Assembly: GCA_963842085.1 (NCBI GenBank)
Contig: CAWJET010000001.1
Location: 576,001 to 640,000 of the forward strand
From: an uncultured delta proteobacterium
GTDB lineage: Bacteria > Desulfobacterota > Binatia > Binatales > Binataceae
Reading direction: 5' to 3'
Length of the DNA: 64,000 nucleotides
Shown: one piece after another, positions 10,314-37,449 of the stretch
How positions within the stretch are numbered: position 1 is the stretch's first letter
How the letters are laid out: each line of letters opens with the position of its first letter
Made by a program: the position numbers and the translations under genes
Notes under the pieces: generated by a model
Databases searched by the model: none
What the model saw: only the letters and a program-made list of their open reading frames with translations
Told to the model about the DNA's origin: nothing

Positions 10314-10928
10314 ATGGAACATGCGGCAGTGTTACGAGTACCCAAACTCGCGCAAAAAAGCAATGCGCTAAGCGCAGAAGACCTCGCACATGAGCTCGGG
10401 CGCGGCCGCGAACGTCGTGTCGGGCGCTCATCGTATCGTGTGCCGTGCGTGGTGCACGGCGGTCGCAGTCTCGAGATTTCTGAGAAAAACGGAAAGACGC
10501 TCTTTCACTGTTGGGCCGGCTGTAGCCAGGACGAGGTGCTCGCCGCGTTAAGGTCTCGCGGATTATGGCGCCCGGGATCGGCACCGCGCCGGCGTTCGTT
10601 CAATTGGGCGGAACATCTACTGCCTCCGCCAGTGACTCCGAGCTGCTGCTTCGAGGTGCCGCATAATTGTGAGCATTGGCAGCAATTCGATACCGACATC
10701 GTGCTCGCTGAGCTTCATAAGAACCTTGTCGAAGCTGCGGATGAAATCGTCAACTTGTACCGCATCGCGGGGTATGCGCTCAGCGCAGCAGAGCTTCGCG
10801 AGGAAATTGAACTTGCGGTTAGCTTGGCAGGCAGCGCGATCACTCCATGGAATCTGGACCCGACGATCGTGAAAGCGATCATGGAAATTGTTGTGGTGGA
10901 GGTGGGGGTGAACGGTGATGGAAATTAA
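10314..10928 (+). CDS. Primase-type N-terminal zinc-binding protein
   Basis: VPCVVHGGRSLEISEKNGKTLFHCWAGCSQDEVLAALRSRGLW (CxxH...HCxAGC). Confidence 0.7.
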   Translation: MEHAAVLRVPKLAQKSNALSAEDLAHELGRGRERRVGRSSYRVPCVVHGGRSLEISEKNGKTLFHCWAGCSQDEVLAALRSRGLWRPGSAPRRRSFNWAEHLLPPPVTPSCCFEVPHNCEHWQQFDTDIVLAELHKNLVEAADEIVNLYRIAGYALSAAELREEIELAVSLAGSAITPWNLDPTIVKAIMEIVVVEVGVNGDGN

Positions 10929-12489
10929 TGAAGGCATTGCGGGCGTCGAACGTCTTCGCGCACATGTCGCATTAAGACGTGTGTCGGACGAGTCCAAAGA
11001 GGCCGAGTCCGAACTGTGCGAAGCTCCGCGGCCGCTGCGGCGCCAATTGCCGCCGGCCGAGCCGTTTCCGGTCGATGCGCTGCCCGACGTACTGCGAGAG
11101 GCAGCGCTCGCGATACACGCGATTACGCGCGCACCAATCGCGATCGGCGCGCAGTCCGTGCTCGCGGTCGCTACCCTCGCAGTGCAGGCCCATGCGGACA
11201 TCGAGCTTCCGACGCGCGCGGTGCGGCCGCTGTCTTGCAACTTCATAACGATCGCGGATAGCGGCGATCGTAAGACCAGTGCGGATGACCTCGCGCTGAA
11301 ATCCATAAGAGATCGCGAGAAGCTGCTCACTCTCGACTATGAACGTGAGAGGAACGATCACGCGAATAGGCTTGAGGCTTGGGATAAGCAGCGCGCTCAG
11401 ATTCTCAGCGATAAGGGCAGATATCCCACCGCTGCCCAGAAACGTGCGGCGCTGGATGAACTTGGCGAGTCTCCGCTACCACCTCTGCTGCCGATGCTGA
11501 CATGTCCGGAACCGACCTTCGAAGGGTTGACCAAGCTACTTCGCGACGGTCAGCCGAGTATAGGCCTGTTCTCTTCCGAAGGCGGGCAATTCATTGGTGG
11601 TCACGCGATGAGCGCCGAGAATCGCCTTAAGACGGCCGCGGCATTCTCGTCGGTATGGGATGGAACCCCGGTGAATAGGGTCAGACAGGGTGATGGGTCC
11701 TTCGTCCTGCACGGCCGGCGAGTTGCTGTACATCTTCTCGTACAACCTGGTGTAGGTGCTCGTCTCTTCAGCGATGCAACTCTTGACGATCAGGGAACGC
11801 TGTCGCGATTGCTGGCGGCTTACCCGGAAACGACGGCCGGAACCCGTTTCTGGAAGGAGCCGGAAGATGCCGACTTTAGCAGGATTAGCAGCTTTAGCGG
11901 GTTGATCACTAAAATTCTAGAGACGCCAGCCCGCACTGGCGACAAGAGAAACGAGCTGGTGCCGCGGGTTCTGCGTCTCTCCCTGGCCGCACGTCGATTA
12001 TGGATTCAGTTTGTCGATCATATTGAAGCCCAAATGGGCGCCGGTGGTGATCTACGGCCGGTCCGGGCATTCGCGAGCAAAGCCCCGGAACATGCGGCGA
12101 GAATCGCCAGCGTATTTCAACTGATCTCGGATCTGGCTGCTCAAGACTTATCGGGGAAGCACATGGCGGCCGGGATAACCCTGGTCCAGCACTACATAAC
12201 TGAGGCTCTTCGTATTCATGCAGCCGGGTTAGATGATCCCGACCTCGTGCTGGCCTCGAAGCTGCTGGAATGGCTCACGGCCGATTGGTTGAAAAAAGAA
12301 CCAGACGGATATGTATCCCTGCCTGATATCTACCAACTCGGCCCTTCCGCCATCCGCGATAAAGGAACAGCTGGCCGCATCGTCGCGATACTCGTCGACC
12401 ACGGGTATCTGCGTCATCACGATGGTCCAATGAAGGTCGCCGGCGAGACACGAAGGGATGTGTGGGTCATCGTGAAGGAGGTCGGGTGA
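10915..12489 (+). CDS. DUF3987/YfjI-family replication protein (putative helicase)
   Basis: PFPVDALP, ADSGDRKTS (Walker A-like), EPTFEGL, SSEGGQFIGG, WDG, QP and SRLL motifs. Confidence 0.85.
   Translation: MMEINEGIAGVERLRAHVALRRVSDESKEAESELCEAPRPLRRQLPPAEPFPVDALPDVLREAALAIHAITRAPIAIGAQSVLAVATLAVQAHADIELPTRAVRPLSCNFITIADSGDRKTSADDLALKSIRDREKLLTLDYERERNDHANRLEAWDKQRAQILSDKGRYPTAAQKRAALDELGESPLPPLLPMLTCPEPTFEGLTKLLRDGQPSIGLFSSEGGQFIGGHAMSAENRLKTAAAFSSVWDGTPVNRVRQGDGSFVLHGRRVAVHLLVQPGVGARLFSDATLDDQGTLSRLLAAYPETTAGTRFWKEPEDADFSRISSFSGLITKILETPARTGDKRNELVPRVLRLSLAARRLWIQFVDHIEAQMGAGGDLRPVRAFASKAPEHAARIASVFQLISDLAAQDLSGKHMAAGITLVQHYITEALRIHAAGLDDPDLVLASKLLEWLTADWLKKEPDGYVSLPDIYQLGPSAIRDKGTAGRIVAILVDHGYLRHHDGPMKVAGETRRDVWVIVKEVG
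11874..11900 (-). repeat. Three 9-bp iteron-like repeats (inverted copy)
   Basis: CTTTAGCAG GATTAGCAG CTTTAGCGG is the reverse complement of the CTGCTAAAG unit at 12544. Confidence 0.6.
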
Positions 12490-12860
12490 TGGGATTCCAC
12501 AAATTTGACGCGTACGAGAATCTCTCAAAAACAGAAGGGTCGCCTGCTAAAGTTGCTAAAGCTGCTAAAGTTGACACGCTCGAGGCTCGCCCCGTCAATG
12601 AATCCGATCAACCCGGCCTGACTCCCGCGCAATCACCGCTCGCGACCCACCCTGCACCCGCGTCGCCGGTGGCGGTCGAGCTGATCTATGTCGAGCCGCA
12701 GCCGAAGGTGACACCGCTCGATCCTAAATTCCCACCGTGCAGGAAGTGCGGCGCACGGCGCTACTGGATCACGGACTCGGGCAAGGTCGTCTGCGGTGGC
12801 CCGGGCTGCGGCGAGGTCCGTTACATCCTGGCGTCGATCGAATATCACCCAATCGCGTAG
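12489..12860 (+). CDS. Hypothetical protein with C-terminal Zn ribbon
   Basis: Start overlaps the upstream stop; CRKC...CGGPGC. The AKVAKAAKV stretch is encoded by the repeats. Confidence 0.55.
   Translation: MGFHKFDAYENLSKTEGSPAKVAKAAKVDTLEARPVNESDQPGLTPAQSPLATHPAPASPVAVELIYVEPQPKVTPLDPKFPPCRKCGARRYWITDSGKVVCGGPGCGEVRYILASIEYHPIA
12544..12572 (+). repeat. Three tandem 9-bp repeats, putative replication-origin iterons
   Basis: CTGCTAAAG TTGCTAAAG CTGCTAAAG TT, just after the replication gene. Confidence 0.65.
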
Positions 12861-12874
12861 GGGCTTTCGGACCG

Positions 12875-14479
<1,605 letters not shown>

Positions 14480-14511
14480 ACCGTCGAAACACGTTTACGT
14501 AGCAGGATGTT

Positions 14512-14588
14512 TGGGGTGAGTGAAGGGATTTGAACCCTCGACCGCCGGAGCCACAATCCGATGCTCTGCCAACTGAGCTACACTCACC
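14512..14588 (-). tRNA. tRNA-His (GTG)
   Basis: Cloverleaf with G-1, anticodon loop TTGTGGC, C discriminator and CCA. Confidence 0.96.
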
Positions 14589-14648
14589 ACCCTCGATCTA
14601 TTCAATCCGCCCGGCGCCTTAAGCCGCCGCTATCGGAATTCGCCTCCG

Positions 14649-14725
<77 letters not shown>

Positions 14726-14727
14726 TA

Positions 14728-14801
14728 TCGGGGCGAGCCGATTTGAACGGCCGACCCCCTGCTCCCAAGGCAGGTGCGCTACCAGGCTGCGCTACGCCCC
14801 G
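14728..14801 (-). tRNA. tRNA-Pro (TGG), CCA not encoded
   Basis: CGGGGCGTAGCGCAGCCTGGTAGCGC...CTTGGGA...GTTCAAATC...CGCCCCGA; only a 2-nt spacer to tRNA-Arg. Confidence 0.95.
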
Positions 14802-15227
14802 AGCCTTTAGGAAGTAACACACGGACGATCCGCTCTCAACCAACGATCATCCGCACACCGGTTTTGTTCATCAATAGATTCGTGGAGCAACAGACAGTGC
14901 CGCATGCGAACGCAGTGGATAACGGCGTCGTTAATTCCGAGCGCAAAACTGGCCAGCGCGCTCCGGACCGATTGAGACTCCGCTGAGGCATATCACGTGT
15001 ATCGACGCATGACCCGGACTGCGCGCGGTGCAGTCGGCTTGCCGCAATCCACGGAACGCGTGAGTGCTATGCGTGCATAATGGGCTCGCATCCAGCGGTT
15101 CGGTCGCAACTTGCAAAACTCGCAATTTTCGGGCGAAAGTGACCGAATTCGAGACTTTCGGGTTCCCGGAGTCGCAGAAAGAGAAAAAGTCCGATCTCGA
15201 TACCGTGAATTCGTCACGGTTTTTCCG

Positions 15228-15243
15228 AGGCACAAGGTTTGCT
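15228..15243 (+). promoter_or_regulatory. Sigma54 (-24/-12) promoter
   Basis: AGGCACAAGGTTTGCT = GG-N10-GC. A perfect palindrome ACCGTGA-N5-TCACGGT lies at 15202-15220. Confidence 0.7.
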
Positions 15244-15253
15244 TGAACTGTTG

Positions 15254-15369
15254 TTGCGCTGACAATCTCCTCCCCCGAGACAACAGCGCCTGTCCCCCAA
15301 GCAAAGGCCGGGCTACTTGAACCGTTGGCTCCCCACCGCGGTCCCCACTCGTAGCCCGGCCGTTCTTTT
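15254..15369 (+). ncRNA. Candidate small RNA with C-rich loops and terminal hairpin/U tract
   Basis: Stems GCGCTG/CAGCGC and GGCCGGGCTAC/GTAGCCCGGCC followed by GTTCTTTT; four TCCCC motifs; directly downstream of the sigma54 site. Confidence 0.55.
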
Positions 15370-15381
15370 ATTGAAAGTCAA

Positions 15382-16233
15382 ATGATCGCCGACGCGCGAT
15401 TTGGCTGCGCTGCCGGCAAATCGCCAGAAGACCCGCGCGAATTCTCCCGGCATTTATCTTTCGGAATTTCTGATAGGCTGACGGAGTACCGGACGGCGGC
15501 GTCGTTGCTCGAGACGTTCATCGGTGCGCTGAACTGTCCGACCGGGGGCCATATCGACCGCCTGAGGCGACAAATTTGTCCACTGCTCGTCGTGACACTC
15601 GCGGCCGCGGTGGCCGTTTGGATCAGCGGATGCTGGATGGCAGCGGCTCAACTCGCGCCCATCGCCGCCAATGTTGCGGAGGATGTCGGCGGTGGAGCCC
15701 TTGAGCTGGCCGCAGGTGTTGGTGCGTCTACCCATCGGGCGGCCACTCAAGCGAAGCAAGAAGAGGAAGCGCGTGAGAGTGCAATGAACGGCGCCGACAG
15801 CTGCGACCAGCTCGAAGTCGAAGTCCCCGGCGTGATCGAGTTGCGCAGGAGTGCAGCCGGCGCGCCCGAATATCGCGAGCTGCAGGTAAGCGATTCGATC
15901 GACCAGCCGCAGTGGGCGCCGATCGCGGACAGTGAAACCACACCGGATGGCTGGCGGCCGGCGGTTAATTTTCTTCAGATGAATTTCTCGCCGCCGCTGG
16001 GCGCAGTGGTCCCCGAGAAGGCAAGCAGCTTTCTGGCGTACGCGCCCTCGCGGTTTATCACGGCAGCCGACAGCGATCGGCTTACCGCGATGACATCGAA
16101 TTTCGGCAAACCGGTCGGCACATTCACCTGGGACGGCCAGTATTACCACTACGTCGTGACGAGCACGCTGCCATGCTTTCCACCGCCGCCCGAGCGGATT
16201 GCCCAGGATGTCACTGCCCCTTCCGGTTTCTAG
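15382..16233 (+). CDS. Hypothetical lipoprotein (true start probably downstream)
   Basis: Hydrophobic stretch plus ISGC lipobox-like motif; coherent GC3-rich ORF. Confidence 0.6.
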   Translation: MIADARFGCAAGKSPEDPREFSRHLSFGISDRLTEYRTAASLLETFIGALNCPTGGHIDRLRRQICPLLVVTLAAAVAVWISGCWMAAAQLAPIAANVAEDVGGGALELAAGVGASTHRAATQAKQEEEARESAMNGADSCDQLEVEVPGVIELRRSAAGAPEYRELQVSDSIDQPQWAPIADSETTPDGWRPAVNFLQMNFSPPLGAVVPEKASSFLAYAPSRFITAADSDRLTAMTSNFGKPVGTFTWDGQYYHYVVTSTLPCFPPPPERIAQDVTAPSGF

Positions 16234-16270
16234 CTAATTCGGTTTATCGGTTGCGACGAGCGTCAGCGCC

Positions 16271-17218
16271 TCAGCGCCGTAGCAGCGGGATTACTTCTCT
16301 GGCGAATTGCTCGTGTTGCGCGTCGCGATCAGCGGGAGCGCAAACCAGATCCAGGTTGACGTCGCGAATGCCCGCTTTGACGAACTCGTCGATTCGCGCT
16401 GCGACGTCGGATGGCCTGCCGACGGCGGCGTAGCGCTTGGCAGGCTCGCGGAAATCCATCGCGTAGCGCTTGCTCAGATGGGTTGCCGCGACGTCGAGCG
16501 CCTCTTCATAGCTGGGCCCAAGCGTCACGAACAAATGCAGCGCCGTGCCGAAGTGCTCGAACTTGCGCCCGGCCTTTGCCGCCTCGCGCGCGATGAACTC
16601 GAGTCCCTCGCCGACCCGCTTGGGCGTCACCACGTACGGCATCCATCCGTCGCCCAGCCGCGCCGCACGCCTGAGCGCGGCTTCGGCGCGTCCCCCGACC
16701 CACACCGGCGGTCCGCCGGGAGTGCGCGGTTTCGGCAGCATCGTAATTTTCGCGAAGCTGAAATACTTGCCGTGATACTCGACCGGTTCCCCGGTCCACA
16801 GCCGCTTGAGTATTTCGATTCCCTCGTTCGCACGCCCGCCGCGTTGTTTGAGCGGAACGCCGCATGCCTCGTACTCGGGCGGAAATTCACCGCCGACGCC
16901 GACGCCGAAAATGAAATGTCCCGCACCCATCAGGCGGTCCACCGTCGCGACCATCTTTGCGACCGTCACCGGATGACGCAGCGGCAACAGGTAAATGCTG
17001 GTGCCAAAAATCAGCTTCGGGTTCAGCGCGGACAGGTAGGTCAACTGGGTCAGCGGATCGTCGATCGGTCCCGTGAACGCAACGTGATCCCCTGTCCATA
17101 CACTGTCGTAGCCCCACTCGGACAGAGTGCTGACAGTCTTGAGCGCGTGCTCACGGTTGGCCGCGGTGGTAATCGCACCGAACCGGATTGTGGAATTCAG
17201 CGGCAGCGCGTCGCTCAT
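16271..17218 (-). CDS. LLM-class flavin/F420-dependent oxidoreductase
   Basis: GYDSVWTGDH, LLPLRHP, GVGVGG and PPVWVGG. Confidence 0.9.
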   Translation of the reverse strand: MSDALPLNSTIRFGAITTAANREHALKTVSTLSEWGYDSVWTGDHVAFTGPIDDPLTQLTYLSALNPKLIFGTSIYLLPLRHPVTVAKMVATVDRLMGAGHFIFGVGVGGEFPPEYEACGVPLKQRGGRANEGIEILKRLWTGEPVEYHGKYFSFAKITMLPKPRTPGGPPVWVGGRAEAALRRAARLGDGWMPYVVTPKRVGEGLEFIAREAAKAGRKFEHFGTALHLFVTLGPSYEEALDVAATHLSKRYAMDFREPAKRYAAVGRPSDVAARIDEFVKAGIRDVNLDLVCAPADRDAQHEQFAREVIPLLRR

Positions 17219-37314: not shown

Positions 37315-37449
37315 CGCTAACATATAGTCAACCGCTAACATCGATTATTGAATCGCGGGGCCTCCTCCGGTTGCACAATGCAACCAAGCAGGGATTTTCC
37401 TTTCCGCTAACTCCGTGCTTAACTGGAGTTAGCGTTAGCAGCACTTAGC
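37315..37449. promoter_or_regulatory. Array of GCTAAC/GTTAGC boxes and palindromes in the divergent promoter region
   Basis: CGCTAAC at 37315, 37333 and 37405; GTTAGC at 37428 and 37434; palindrome GGTTGCA-CAA-TGCAACC at 37369-37385. Confidence 0.55.

Follow-up and report, generated by a model that had tools for sequence, protein, structure and literature searches.

Does a short, apparently non-coding segment that lies between a divergent tRNA cluster and a lipoprotein-like gene in an uncultured delta proteobacterium of the Binataceae constitute a gene of its own, and if so, what would its product do? The segment occupies positions 15254-15369 of the plus strand of the window, by which we mean the whole 64,000-nt stretch of DNA analysed here (C1:576001-640000 of a 4.93-Mb genome in two contigs, with a completeness score of 100%). 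A first-pass annotation had proposed that it encodes a small RNA (sRNA) driven by sigma-54, with C-rich motifs resembling the anti-Shine-Dalgarno (anti-SD) sequence. We read 15254-15369 (+) as a stand-alone gene for an activator-dependent regulatory RNA of about 115 nt, proper to the Binataceae, whose C-runs would pair with Shine-Dalgarno-like (SD-like) sites, and we give this reading a probability of roughly 0.6. For the existence of the sRNA gene itself, predicted from its sequence and that of its relatives, the odds are much higher than even. Comparison of sequences reveals the gene together with its promoter elements and its structure, and it shows likewise that the C-runs are accessible and that the gene is independent of the one downstream.

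Boundaries and structure of the predicted RNA

In the alignment of the genus, near-invariance starts at about 15256, within a few bases of 15254, and continues up to the T-run, while similarity collapses right past 15369. The -24 and -12 promoter elements are invariant as well, whereas the 5-nt spacer between them and the stretch leading to the predicted transcription start (+1) vary freely. The first-pass annotation took the ~115 nt to be non-coding, and this view is supported by insertions and deletions of 1-2 nt between close relatives, which speak against a coding frame. Two open reading frames, 15111-15320 (+) and 14993-15304 (-), were rejected as coding sequences: both run across the variable spacer of the promoter, and in relatives such 1-2 nt indels interrupt them.

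The predicted RNA consists of two stem-loops separated by a linker, all on the plus strand. Stem-loop 1 (SL1, 15256-15289) is closed by GCGCTG (15256-15261) and CAGCGC (15284-15289), and its inner stem TCTC/GAGA carries the apical loop CTCCCCC (15270-15276), which gives UCUC[CUCCCCC]GAGA as RNA; the C-rich loop region 15268-15276, CUCCUCCCCC, includes CCUCC. The single-stranded linker (15290-15306) bears the motif UGUCCCC(C)AAGC, with a C-run at 15294-15298 and a core at 15292-15300 (GTCCCCCAA as DNA, GUCCCCCAA as RNA). It is predicted to be unpaired and is the best-kept unpaired segment of the family. Stem-loop 2 (SL2, 15307-15361) has a G+C-rich basal stem of 11 bp, in which GGCCGGGCTAC (15307-15317) pairs with GTAGCCCGGCC (15351-15361), and an apical hairpin; it encloses the apical loop CTCCCCA (15329-15335, CUCCCCA in the RNA) and the internal-loop motif GTCCCCA (15341-15347, GUCCCCA). 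A T-rich tail (15362-15369, GTTCTTTT as DNA and GUUCUUUU as RNA) completes the segment. SL1, the linker, SL2 with its two enclosed motifs and the T-rich tail are thus all present in the sequence as the first-pass annotation had described them.

With its 11-bp, G+C-rich stem directly followed by GUUCUUUU, the end of the segment resembles an intrinsic terminator; SL2 was not reported by a simple terminator scanner because the loop limit of that scanner is 8 nt. A T-rich tail (at least 5 T within 9 nt past the stem) is present in 40 of 57 members. In two genera (L086, L088, L089, L114, L090 and L102-L109), we observed C/U-rich tails after SL2, for example GUCCUCCCCC and AAUCCCAUCC, with no T-run; either termination is different in these members or the tail is an additional C-motif.

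Of 200 dinucleotide shuffles, none folds as well as the 117-nt stretch itself, whose minimum free energy is -45.4 kcal/mol (z = -4.86). Comparison of 55 diverse members (alignment A4) showed changes on both sides in 19 of 29 pairs, with 96.5% of the cells paired, and in 500 shuffles none of five structure measures was reached even once. When the partners were slid by 1-3 columns, pairing fell to 35-48%. In a larger set (A2), 23 of the 29 pairs covary. Both helices of SL1 covary, and in SL2 compensatory changes were found in all 6 pairs of the apical helix and in the 3 top pairs of the basal stem (5 in A2). These two alignments, A4 and the larger one, were fitted to a model; as a structure-blind control, 47 members were aligned by MAFFT alone, and RNAalifold recovered from this alignment the SL1 stem as well as the basal and apical stems of SL2, with compensatory changes in 9 of 20 pairs. 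We also observed substitution series from G-C through G-U to A-U at the base of SL1 (17/7/6) and from U-G to U-A in SL2 (18/12). Because the G-U intermediates are valid on the plus strand only, they fix the strand of the RNA as plus.

Distribution of the family

The first-pass annotation had suggested a cmscan search against Rfam, and we carried it out with Rfam 15 on positions 14000-16500. No family was matched within 15200-15370 at E-values up to 10, the only matches being four tRNAs and chance tRNA matches. Rfam 15 can be expected to hold models for the Qrr, RsaE, sX13, Pxr and cuckoo/alpha-r14 RNAs.

By BLASTN, the element occurs once in this genome and in 33 of the 36 other genomes of the genus, at 75-92% identity. 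We built a covariance model, R1, from 30 genus sequences (alignment A1). By this model, 109 of the 150 other family genomes examined carry the element, and they belong to 20 of 30 genera; among family genomes of good quality, this one included, 77 of 95 were positive. Positive genomes hold a single copy, apart from one genus in which copies lie in tandem. Among 150 other genomes drawn evenly from the class, 17 belong to the family; R1 recognized 14 of these and gave one weak match elsewhere. A second model, R2, built from A4, recognized again 14 of the 17 and gave two weak matches in family f4. In the 18 other families of the class draw, neither model found a true copy. A match in family f2 (L049) proved false, being a G+C-rich and apparently coding sequence without promoter, and what R2 matched in family f4 are two ordinary terminators in which the GGCCGGGC stem also occurs.

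Scanning the contigs of named genomes with the pattern TGTCCCCAAGN{2,6}GGCCGGG returned at least 120 stretches. Among the 80 matches listed, 24 loci were confirmed by the model and the rest were due to chance. These 24 loci, among the matches listed, come mostly from records named Candidatus Binatus, Binataceae, Binatia or 'uncultured delta proteobacterium', with three named otherwise. The Binatus, Binataceae and Binatia names lead us to equate the family of the element with the Binataceae, and the likeness of the best matches makes Binatus the probable genus. The tallies of the genus BLASTN search, the class draw with R1 and with R2, the family scan with R1 and the porin and hpf orthologues (see below) include the unpublished genomes G018, G023, G195, G213, G215, G228 and G239. 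A1 and R1 include one G023 sequence, while A2-A4, R2 and all motif counts were made without unpublished genomes.

In one genus that is negative by both models (G186), a diverged copy is present at the syntenic place (L327:941-1070, minus strand). It has both upstream boxes and GGCAC-N5-TTGCG, it has lost the C-run of the linker and it carries a CCUCCCCAAGCC motif after SL2 instead. At least one model-negative genus therefore holds a diverged copy, so that model negatives are not all true negatives; at the syntenic place of four other model-negative genera we found nothing. In another genus without the sRNA (G207), the place beside tRNA-Pro has no sRNA gene and is occupied by the tract GTGGGGGGAGGTGGGGGGTG (L326:1703-1722), which is C-rich on the tRNA strand and lies in the would-be leader of the tRNA operon. 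Finally, three tandem sibling copies lie within ~560 nt in a further genus of the family (G120, L251:500-1056). Copies one and three are each preceded by a box and a sigma-54 promoter of their own. For the diverged copy between them (loop CUCCCUCCUCC), no promoter is evident, and it may be co-transcribed with copy one, in which the T-run is missing.

Judged by these sequence searches, the element is a predicted RNA family shared by the Binataceae, absent from Rfam and member of no known family compared, with a design that resembles known kinds.

Promoter and upstream sites

Direct inspection of the plus strand showed the -24 element GGCAC at 15229-15233, the spacer AAGGT and the -12 element TTGCT at 15239-15243. 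This sigma-54-type promoter (15229-15243, GGCAC-N5-TTGCT) has its GG and GC 10 nt apart as in TGGCAC-N5-TTGCW (aGGCAC-AAGGT-TTGCT). The first-pass annotation had called it near-consensus, and the comparison with relatives agrees: GG[CT][AG][CT]-N5-TTGC is located at a fixed distance, 8-11 nt before the start of the covariance model, in 59 of 59 members. The predicted +1 at 15254 was placed at the usual 12-nt distance from the GC of the -12 element, and the T-run was taken as the 3' end. Sigma-54-like promoter matches number 9 (strict) or 96 (loose) in the whole genome, which encodes one rpoN (PF04552, 215.7 bits) and contains 24 matches above 120 bits to the activator domain PF00158.

Two conserved sites precede the promoter on the same strand. 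The distal enhancer-like site, TCGCAACTTGCAA (15104-15116), is centred 119 nt upstream of the -24 GG; it reads TCGCA-ACT-TGCAA, which matches TTGCA-N3-TGCAA at 9 of 10 positions, and is invariant in the genus alignment. Sites of this type (at least 8 of 10) centred at -117 to -124 from the GG are present in 27 of 57 members and 10 of 19 genera, for a shuffle rate of 0.26%, and the match is 10 of 10 in two other genera. The proximal box, TCGCAGAAAGAGAA (15172-15185), is near-invariant in the genus and corresponds to the family motif TYGCA-N4-RNGAA. In its strict form, this motif was found at -45 to -105 in 41 of 57 members and 16 of 19 genera (shuffle rate 0.09%), and it starts 55-59 nt upstream of the GG in 35 of these 41. 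In one genus (L039), the box lies inside a perfect 22-nt palindrome. Counted from the predicted +1, the centres of the two sites are at about -78 (proximal) and about -144 (distal), which agrees with the usual distance of activator sites, about 80-150 bp.

The consensus TTGCA-N3-TGCAA is the one quoted for the LuxO sites upstream of the sigma-54 promoters of the qrr genes (PMC3352281). We take this likeness in sequence as a lead to an activator of the NtrC/LuxO type, not as its identification, and it may just reflect the general TGCA half-sites of the NtrC family. The combination of box and promoter occurs twice in the genome; the other occurrence has GGCGC as -24 element and looks like chance.

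A scan of the whole genome for the TTGCA-N3-TGCAA palindrome returned 21 sites, most of them inside genes. Outside the window, at C1:3116102-3116500, TGGCAT-N5-TTGCT is preceded at a distance of ~107 nt by a second palindrome, TCGCATTCTGCGA, and followed by tandem small open reading frames with hydrophobic C-termini; this is possibly a further promoter served by a related activator. Two other palindromes are intergenic: TTGCACAATGCAA between divergent genes at 37371-37383 of the window (C1:613371), and the perfect TTGCA-N3-TGCAA palindrome TTGCAAATTGCAA at C1:1273559, ~1.7 kb from an activator-domain match. No sigma-54-like promoter was found within 300 nt of either.

Between the proximal box and the promoter, an A/T-rich spacer (15186-15228, plus strand) ends in a T-run and holds the inverted repeat ACCGTGA-ATTCG-TCACGGT (15203-15221). 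The first-pass annotation described this repeat as a perfect palindrome. It has in fact 7-nt arms (ACCGTGA/TCACGGT) around an asymmetric 5-nt centre, and it is not conserved even within the genus, for which reason we rejected it as a regulatory site; of the spacer, relatives share only a patch resembling GAATT and the T-run ahead of the promoter. The spacer might conceivably act as a bend or an IHF site.

The C-runs and their possible partners

The RNA contains 39% C and 24% G, and the excess of C over G is confined to the unpaired parts. Runs of at least 4 C have a mean predicted unpaired probability of 0.92 versus 0.35 elsewhere, and this holds in 55 of 55 members. At least three such runs are present in 49 of 57 members. 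Together with the family-wide conservation, the covarying helices and the lack of a match in Rfam, this accessibility sustains the earlier idea of an unannotated sRNA family. The idea of four C-rich anti-SD-like motifs is right for this genome, in which all four are present, and has to be narrowed for the family, which shares only three. Of these, the SL1 loop reads CUCCUCCCCC, CUCCCCCC or CCCCC, the linker has UGUCCCCAAGC, and the apical loop of SL2 is either CUCCCCA or UCCCCCCAA. Motif four, GGUCCCCAC in the internal loop of SL2, is limited to this genus and a few neighbouring genera. Lineage-specific loop sequences include CCUCCCCC, CUCCCCCC and UCGUCCC.

The 3' end of the 16S rRNA of this genome, ...CACCUCCUUUCU, has the core CCUCC in common with the SL1 loop. 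Using a rough home-made gene call (4138 genes, 82% of the genome), we observed that 7-mers complementary to the SL1 loop are 4.4-7.5 fold commoner at -45 to +10 of the 4138 starts than in the genome at large; the enrichment is 5 fold for the SL2 loop and 1.2-3.2 fold for the linker. GGGG is found at -20 to -3 in 338 of 4138 genes (8%) versus 87 in the control window. Neither Hfq nor CsrA was found in this genome, scored 100% complete.

Targets were predicted from duplex energies over the same gene call. The best duplex in this genome involves the ribosome-binding site of a BBP2 porin gene (16 bp and one bulge, -31.7 kcal/mol). It stands as a mere candidate target: the 16-bp match is specific to this genome, and 26 orthologues keep only a generic strong SD core (GGGAGGAG or similar). 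The hpf gene, downstream of rpoN, was rejected, since two genomes from within the genus already lack the site. The porin gene has in addition a GGTAYGAATCTTGW motif 20-126 nt upstream of its approximate start (L252:95-108; C1:2800206-2800219 in this genome). This motif has sigma-54-like spacing, with A or T replacing the C of the -12 element, and is present here and at 24 of 26 orthologous loci, which makes 25 of 27 genomes, also in genera without the sRNA.

By analogy with known sRNAs, we give roughly even odds to base pairing of the C-runs with G-rich, SD-like sites. The strongest competitor is a protein sponge, in which the three or four unpaired YUCCCCA motifs of the sigma-54-driven RNA would titrate a C-motif-binding protein, following the logic of CsrB/RsmZ and CsrA. 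Such a role would suit the repetition of one short motif three to four times, always in a loop or the linker and with a mean unpaired probability of 0.92, but repeated seeds are also usual among base-pairing sRNAs of this sort. It would likewise suit the three tandem siblings of one genus, as sponge RNAs often occur in such copies, and the lack of a specific conserved mRNA target for the porin and hpf candidates. However, no candidate protein is known, CsrA and Hfq being absent from the genome, and the SL1 loop holds the exact anti-SD core CCUCC, the complement of which is typical of the ribosome-binding sites of this genome. Moreover, the C-loop sRNAs that have been studied pair with RNA, as described for sX13 (PMC3771888). 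We consider a sponge unlikely on balance and prefer pairing with mRNAs.

Independence from the neighbouring genes

Downstream of the element, a frame of 283 codons (15382-16233) encodes a lipoprotein-like protein that matched no Pfam family. Its likely true start is ~175 nt from the T-run. Is the element then a cis-acting leader, a 5' untranslated region (UTR) or an attenuator, of this gene, at least within the genus? In favour of a leader are this distance and the homologues of the frame that follow the element on the same strand in all genus loci that gave a match. Conservation collapses past the T-run even inside the genus, however, and in the loci of other genera no homologue of the frame was found behind the element. 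We also determined the strand of the next gene at 52 loci, 50 of them from other genera, as that of the best codon-usage score (trained on this genome) within 450 nt. The next gene is on the opposite strand, and so convergent, in 33 of the 47 confident loci and on the same strand in 14; the element is therefore not a 5' UTR, contrary to the possibility left by the first-pass annotation that it is just that of the lipoprotein gene, which is syntenic only in the genus. The 11-bp G+C stem with its T-run is terminator-like, which also argues against a leader. We judge this alternative to be very improbable. With its own predicted promoter, its terminator-like end and a conservation that stops at the T-run, the element is, as far as sequences can tell, an independent unit.

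On the other side lies a divergent tRNA cluster, Pro(TGG)-Arg(TCT)-His(GTG)-Lys(CTT), which ARAGORN located at 14404-14802 of the minus strand. The first-pass annotation had proposed to look for covarying homologues of the element beside tRNA-Pro, and relatives do carry it there: the same cluster is upstream and divergent in 31 of the 38 loci examined, and 5 of the 7 exceptions had only 700-nt flanks. This cluster is the sole family-wide neighbour of the sRNA gene. That the segment is a conserved element at the DNA level, a protein-binding or recombination site beside the tRNA cluster with no functional RNA, is hardly credible: the constant tRNA neighbour does serve as an integration site, with an integrase at tRNA-Lys in the window, and the transcript itself is a prediction, but the helix-preserving compensatory changes with G-U intermediates valid on one strand only, the promoter and terminator in correct order and orientation and the strong skew of C over G restricted to unpaired parts all speak against it.

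Two genes adjoin tRNA-Lys in the window, one for a DUF3987 protein (10915-12489) and one (12737-14473) for a tyrosine integrase that has an HTH_17 domain. At its end (14473), the latter frame overlaps tRNA-Lys (14404-14479, opposite strand), and the region 10915-14479 looks like an element integrated at this tRNA gene.

Comparison with known small RNAs

According to PMC3771888, sX13 of Xanthomonas is an RNA of 115 nt that acts without Hfq and represses, through its C-rich loops, mRNAs in which G-rich motifs lie close to the start codon. The Binataceae RNA resembles it in its size of ~115 nt, its strong structure and its CCCC/CCCCC motifs in apical loops, and the absence of Hfq here fits with an Hfq-independent C-loop RNA (PMC3771888). 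In both cases, G-rich motifs at ribosome-binding sites are found in a minority of genes, 5% in the host of sX13 (PMC3771888) and 8% with GGGG here. The architecture is different, with three simple hairpins described for sX13 and two stem-loops with a conserved single-stranded linker motif here, and sX13 is not known to have a sigma-54 promoter with enhancer-like sites such as the one present here. In addition, there is no similarity in sequence or model (no Rfam match, E up to 10), and the phylum is another one.

In Vibrio, the qrr genes are the main targets of LuxO, and the Qrr sRNAs need Hfq. The Binataceae gene shares with them the combination of a sigma-54 promoter and upstream sites of the TTGCA-N3-TGCAA type (PMC3352281). 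It shares as well the occurrence of sibling copies, in one Binataceae genus, and it is apparently the sole promoter of its genome with this arrangement of sites. On the contrary, it has no match to the Qrr model, no Hfq, no adjacent activator gene (~148 kb to the nearest) and a C-rich, anti-SD-like seed.

RsaE/RoxS and other UCCC-motif sRNAs of Firmicutes, like the CcsR/'cuckoo' and NfeR1 CCUCCUCCC sRNAs of Alphaproteobacteria, carry more than one unpaired motif of C-rich or anti-SD type, for which pairing with ribosome-binding sites has been shown or proposed. The presence of multiple motifs of this kind in one small RNA is what the Binataceae RNA has in common with them; there is no homology (by Rfam), and promoters and phyla are different. 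For the sRNA Pxr of Myxococcus, dependence on a promoter of the sigma-54 type has been reported, and it is not known to have a C-rich motif architecture. It had been cited as a parallel by the first-pass annotation, and the parallel stands for the promoter type and for nothing beyond it; the lineage of Myxococcus was once grouped with the 'delta proteobacteria', a label still on many Binatia records, and the element has no Rfam match, the Pxr model being assumed to be in the library. RoxS (PMC8216469) and the cuckoo RNA (PMC4615179) are C-rich-motif sRNAs, and a feedback loop connects NfeR1 with NtrBC (PMC10746234), apparently not through a sigma-54 promoter of its own.

Proposed mode of action

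We propose that an enhancer-binding protein of the NtrC/LuxO type, encoded elsewhere in the genome, would bind the TYGCA-containing sites at 15104-15116 and 15172-15185 and, once bound, switch on the sigma-54 RNA polymerase at GGCAC-N5-TTGCT. A transcript would then run from near 15254 to the SL2 terminator. Its two stem-loops would expose the three family-wide C-runs (four in this genus) in the loops and the linker, and these would pair with G-rich, SD-like sequences of mRNAs, so that ribosome binding would be blocked without Hfq. Transcription, its dependence on sigma-54 and an activator, the base-pairing mode, the targets and the signal are what we infer in this scheme.

Several observations weigh against it. 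The transcript, its +1 and its 3' end are predictions. The T-rich tail is missing in 17 of 57 members, which points to a weak terminator there, and 41 of 150 family genomes gave no match to R1. In most genera, the proximal box is no more than half-palindromic. No activator gene lies near the sRNA gene, the nearest PF00158 match of the whole genome being ~148 kb away. The enrichment of loop complements at gene starts follows from the anti-SD likeness and is therefore no independent proof of targeting, and neither of the two candidates followed, porin and hpf, turned out to be a specific conserved target.

A bolder possibility, which we hold to be doubtful but worth stating, is a LuxO/Qrr-like design in the Binatota. 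A dedicated NtrC/LuxO-type activator would have this sRNA as its only or main direct promoter target, and the sRNA, an anti-SD mimic with three to four C-run seeds and no Hfq, would turn one signal into the translational re-programming of several hundred genes with G-rich ribosome-binding sites.

Significance for the Binatia

The Binatia are widespread bacteria of soils and sediments, known from metagenomes only. A full-text literature search returned no paper on small or non-coding RNA in the Binatota or Binatia, nor on sigma-54 in Binatus. With the element described here, the lineage gains a well-delimited predicted RNA family that is missing from Rfam, for which the model-quality alignments A2-A4 are suited to curation, and a complete predicted promoter architecture that is testable in a surrogate host. 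The sRNA is also a candidate marker transcript for soil metatranscriptomes. From a phylum that is distant and lacks Hfq, it would contribute an independent example of two recurring designs: C-loop sRNAs that mimic the anti-SD sequence and sigma-54 promoters devoted to an sRNA. If the LuxO/Qrr-like design were true, the phylum would thereby have its first regulatory RNA as well as its first defined circuit from signal to output, evolved independently of the Vibrio system.

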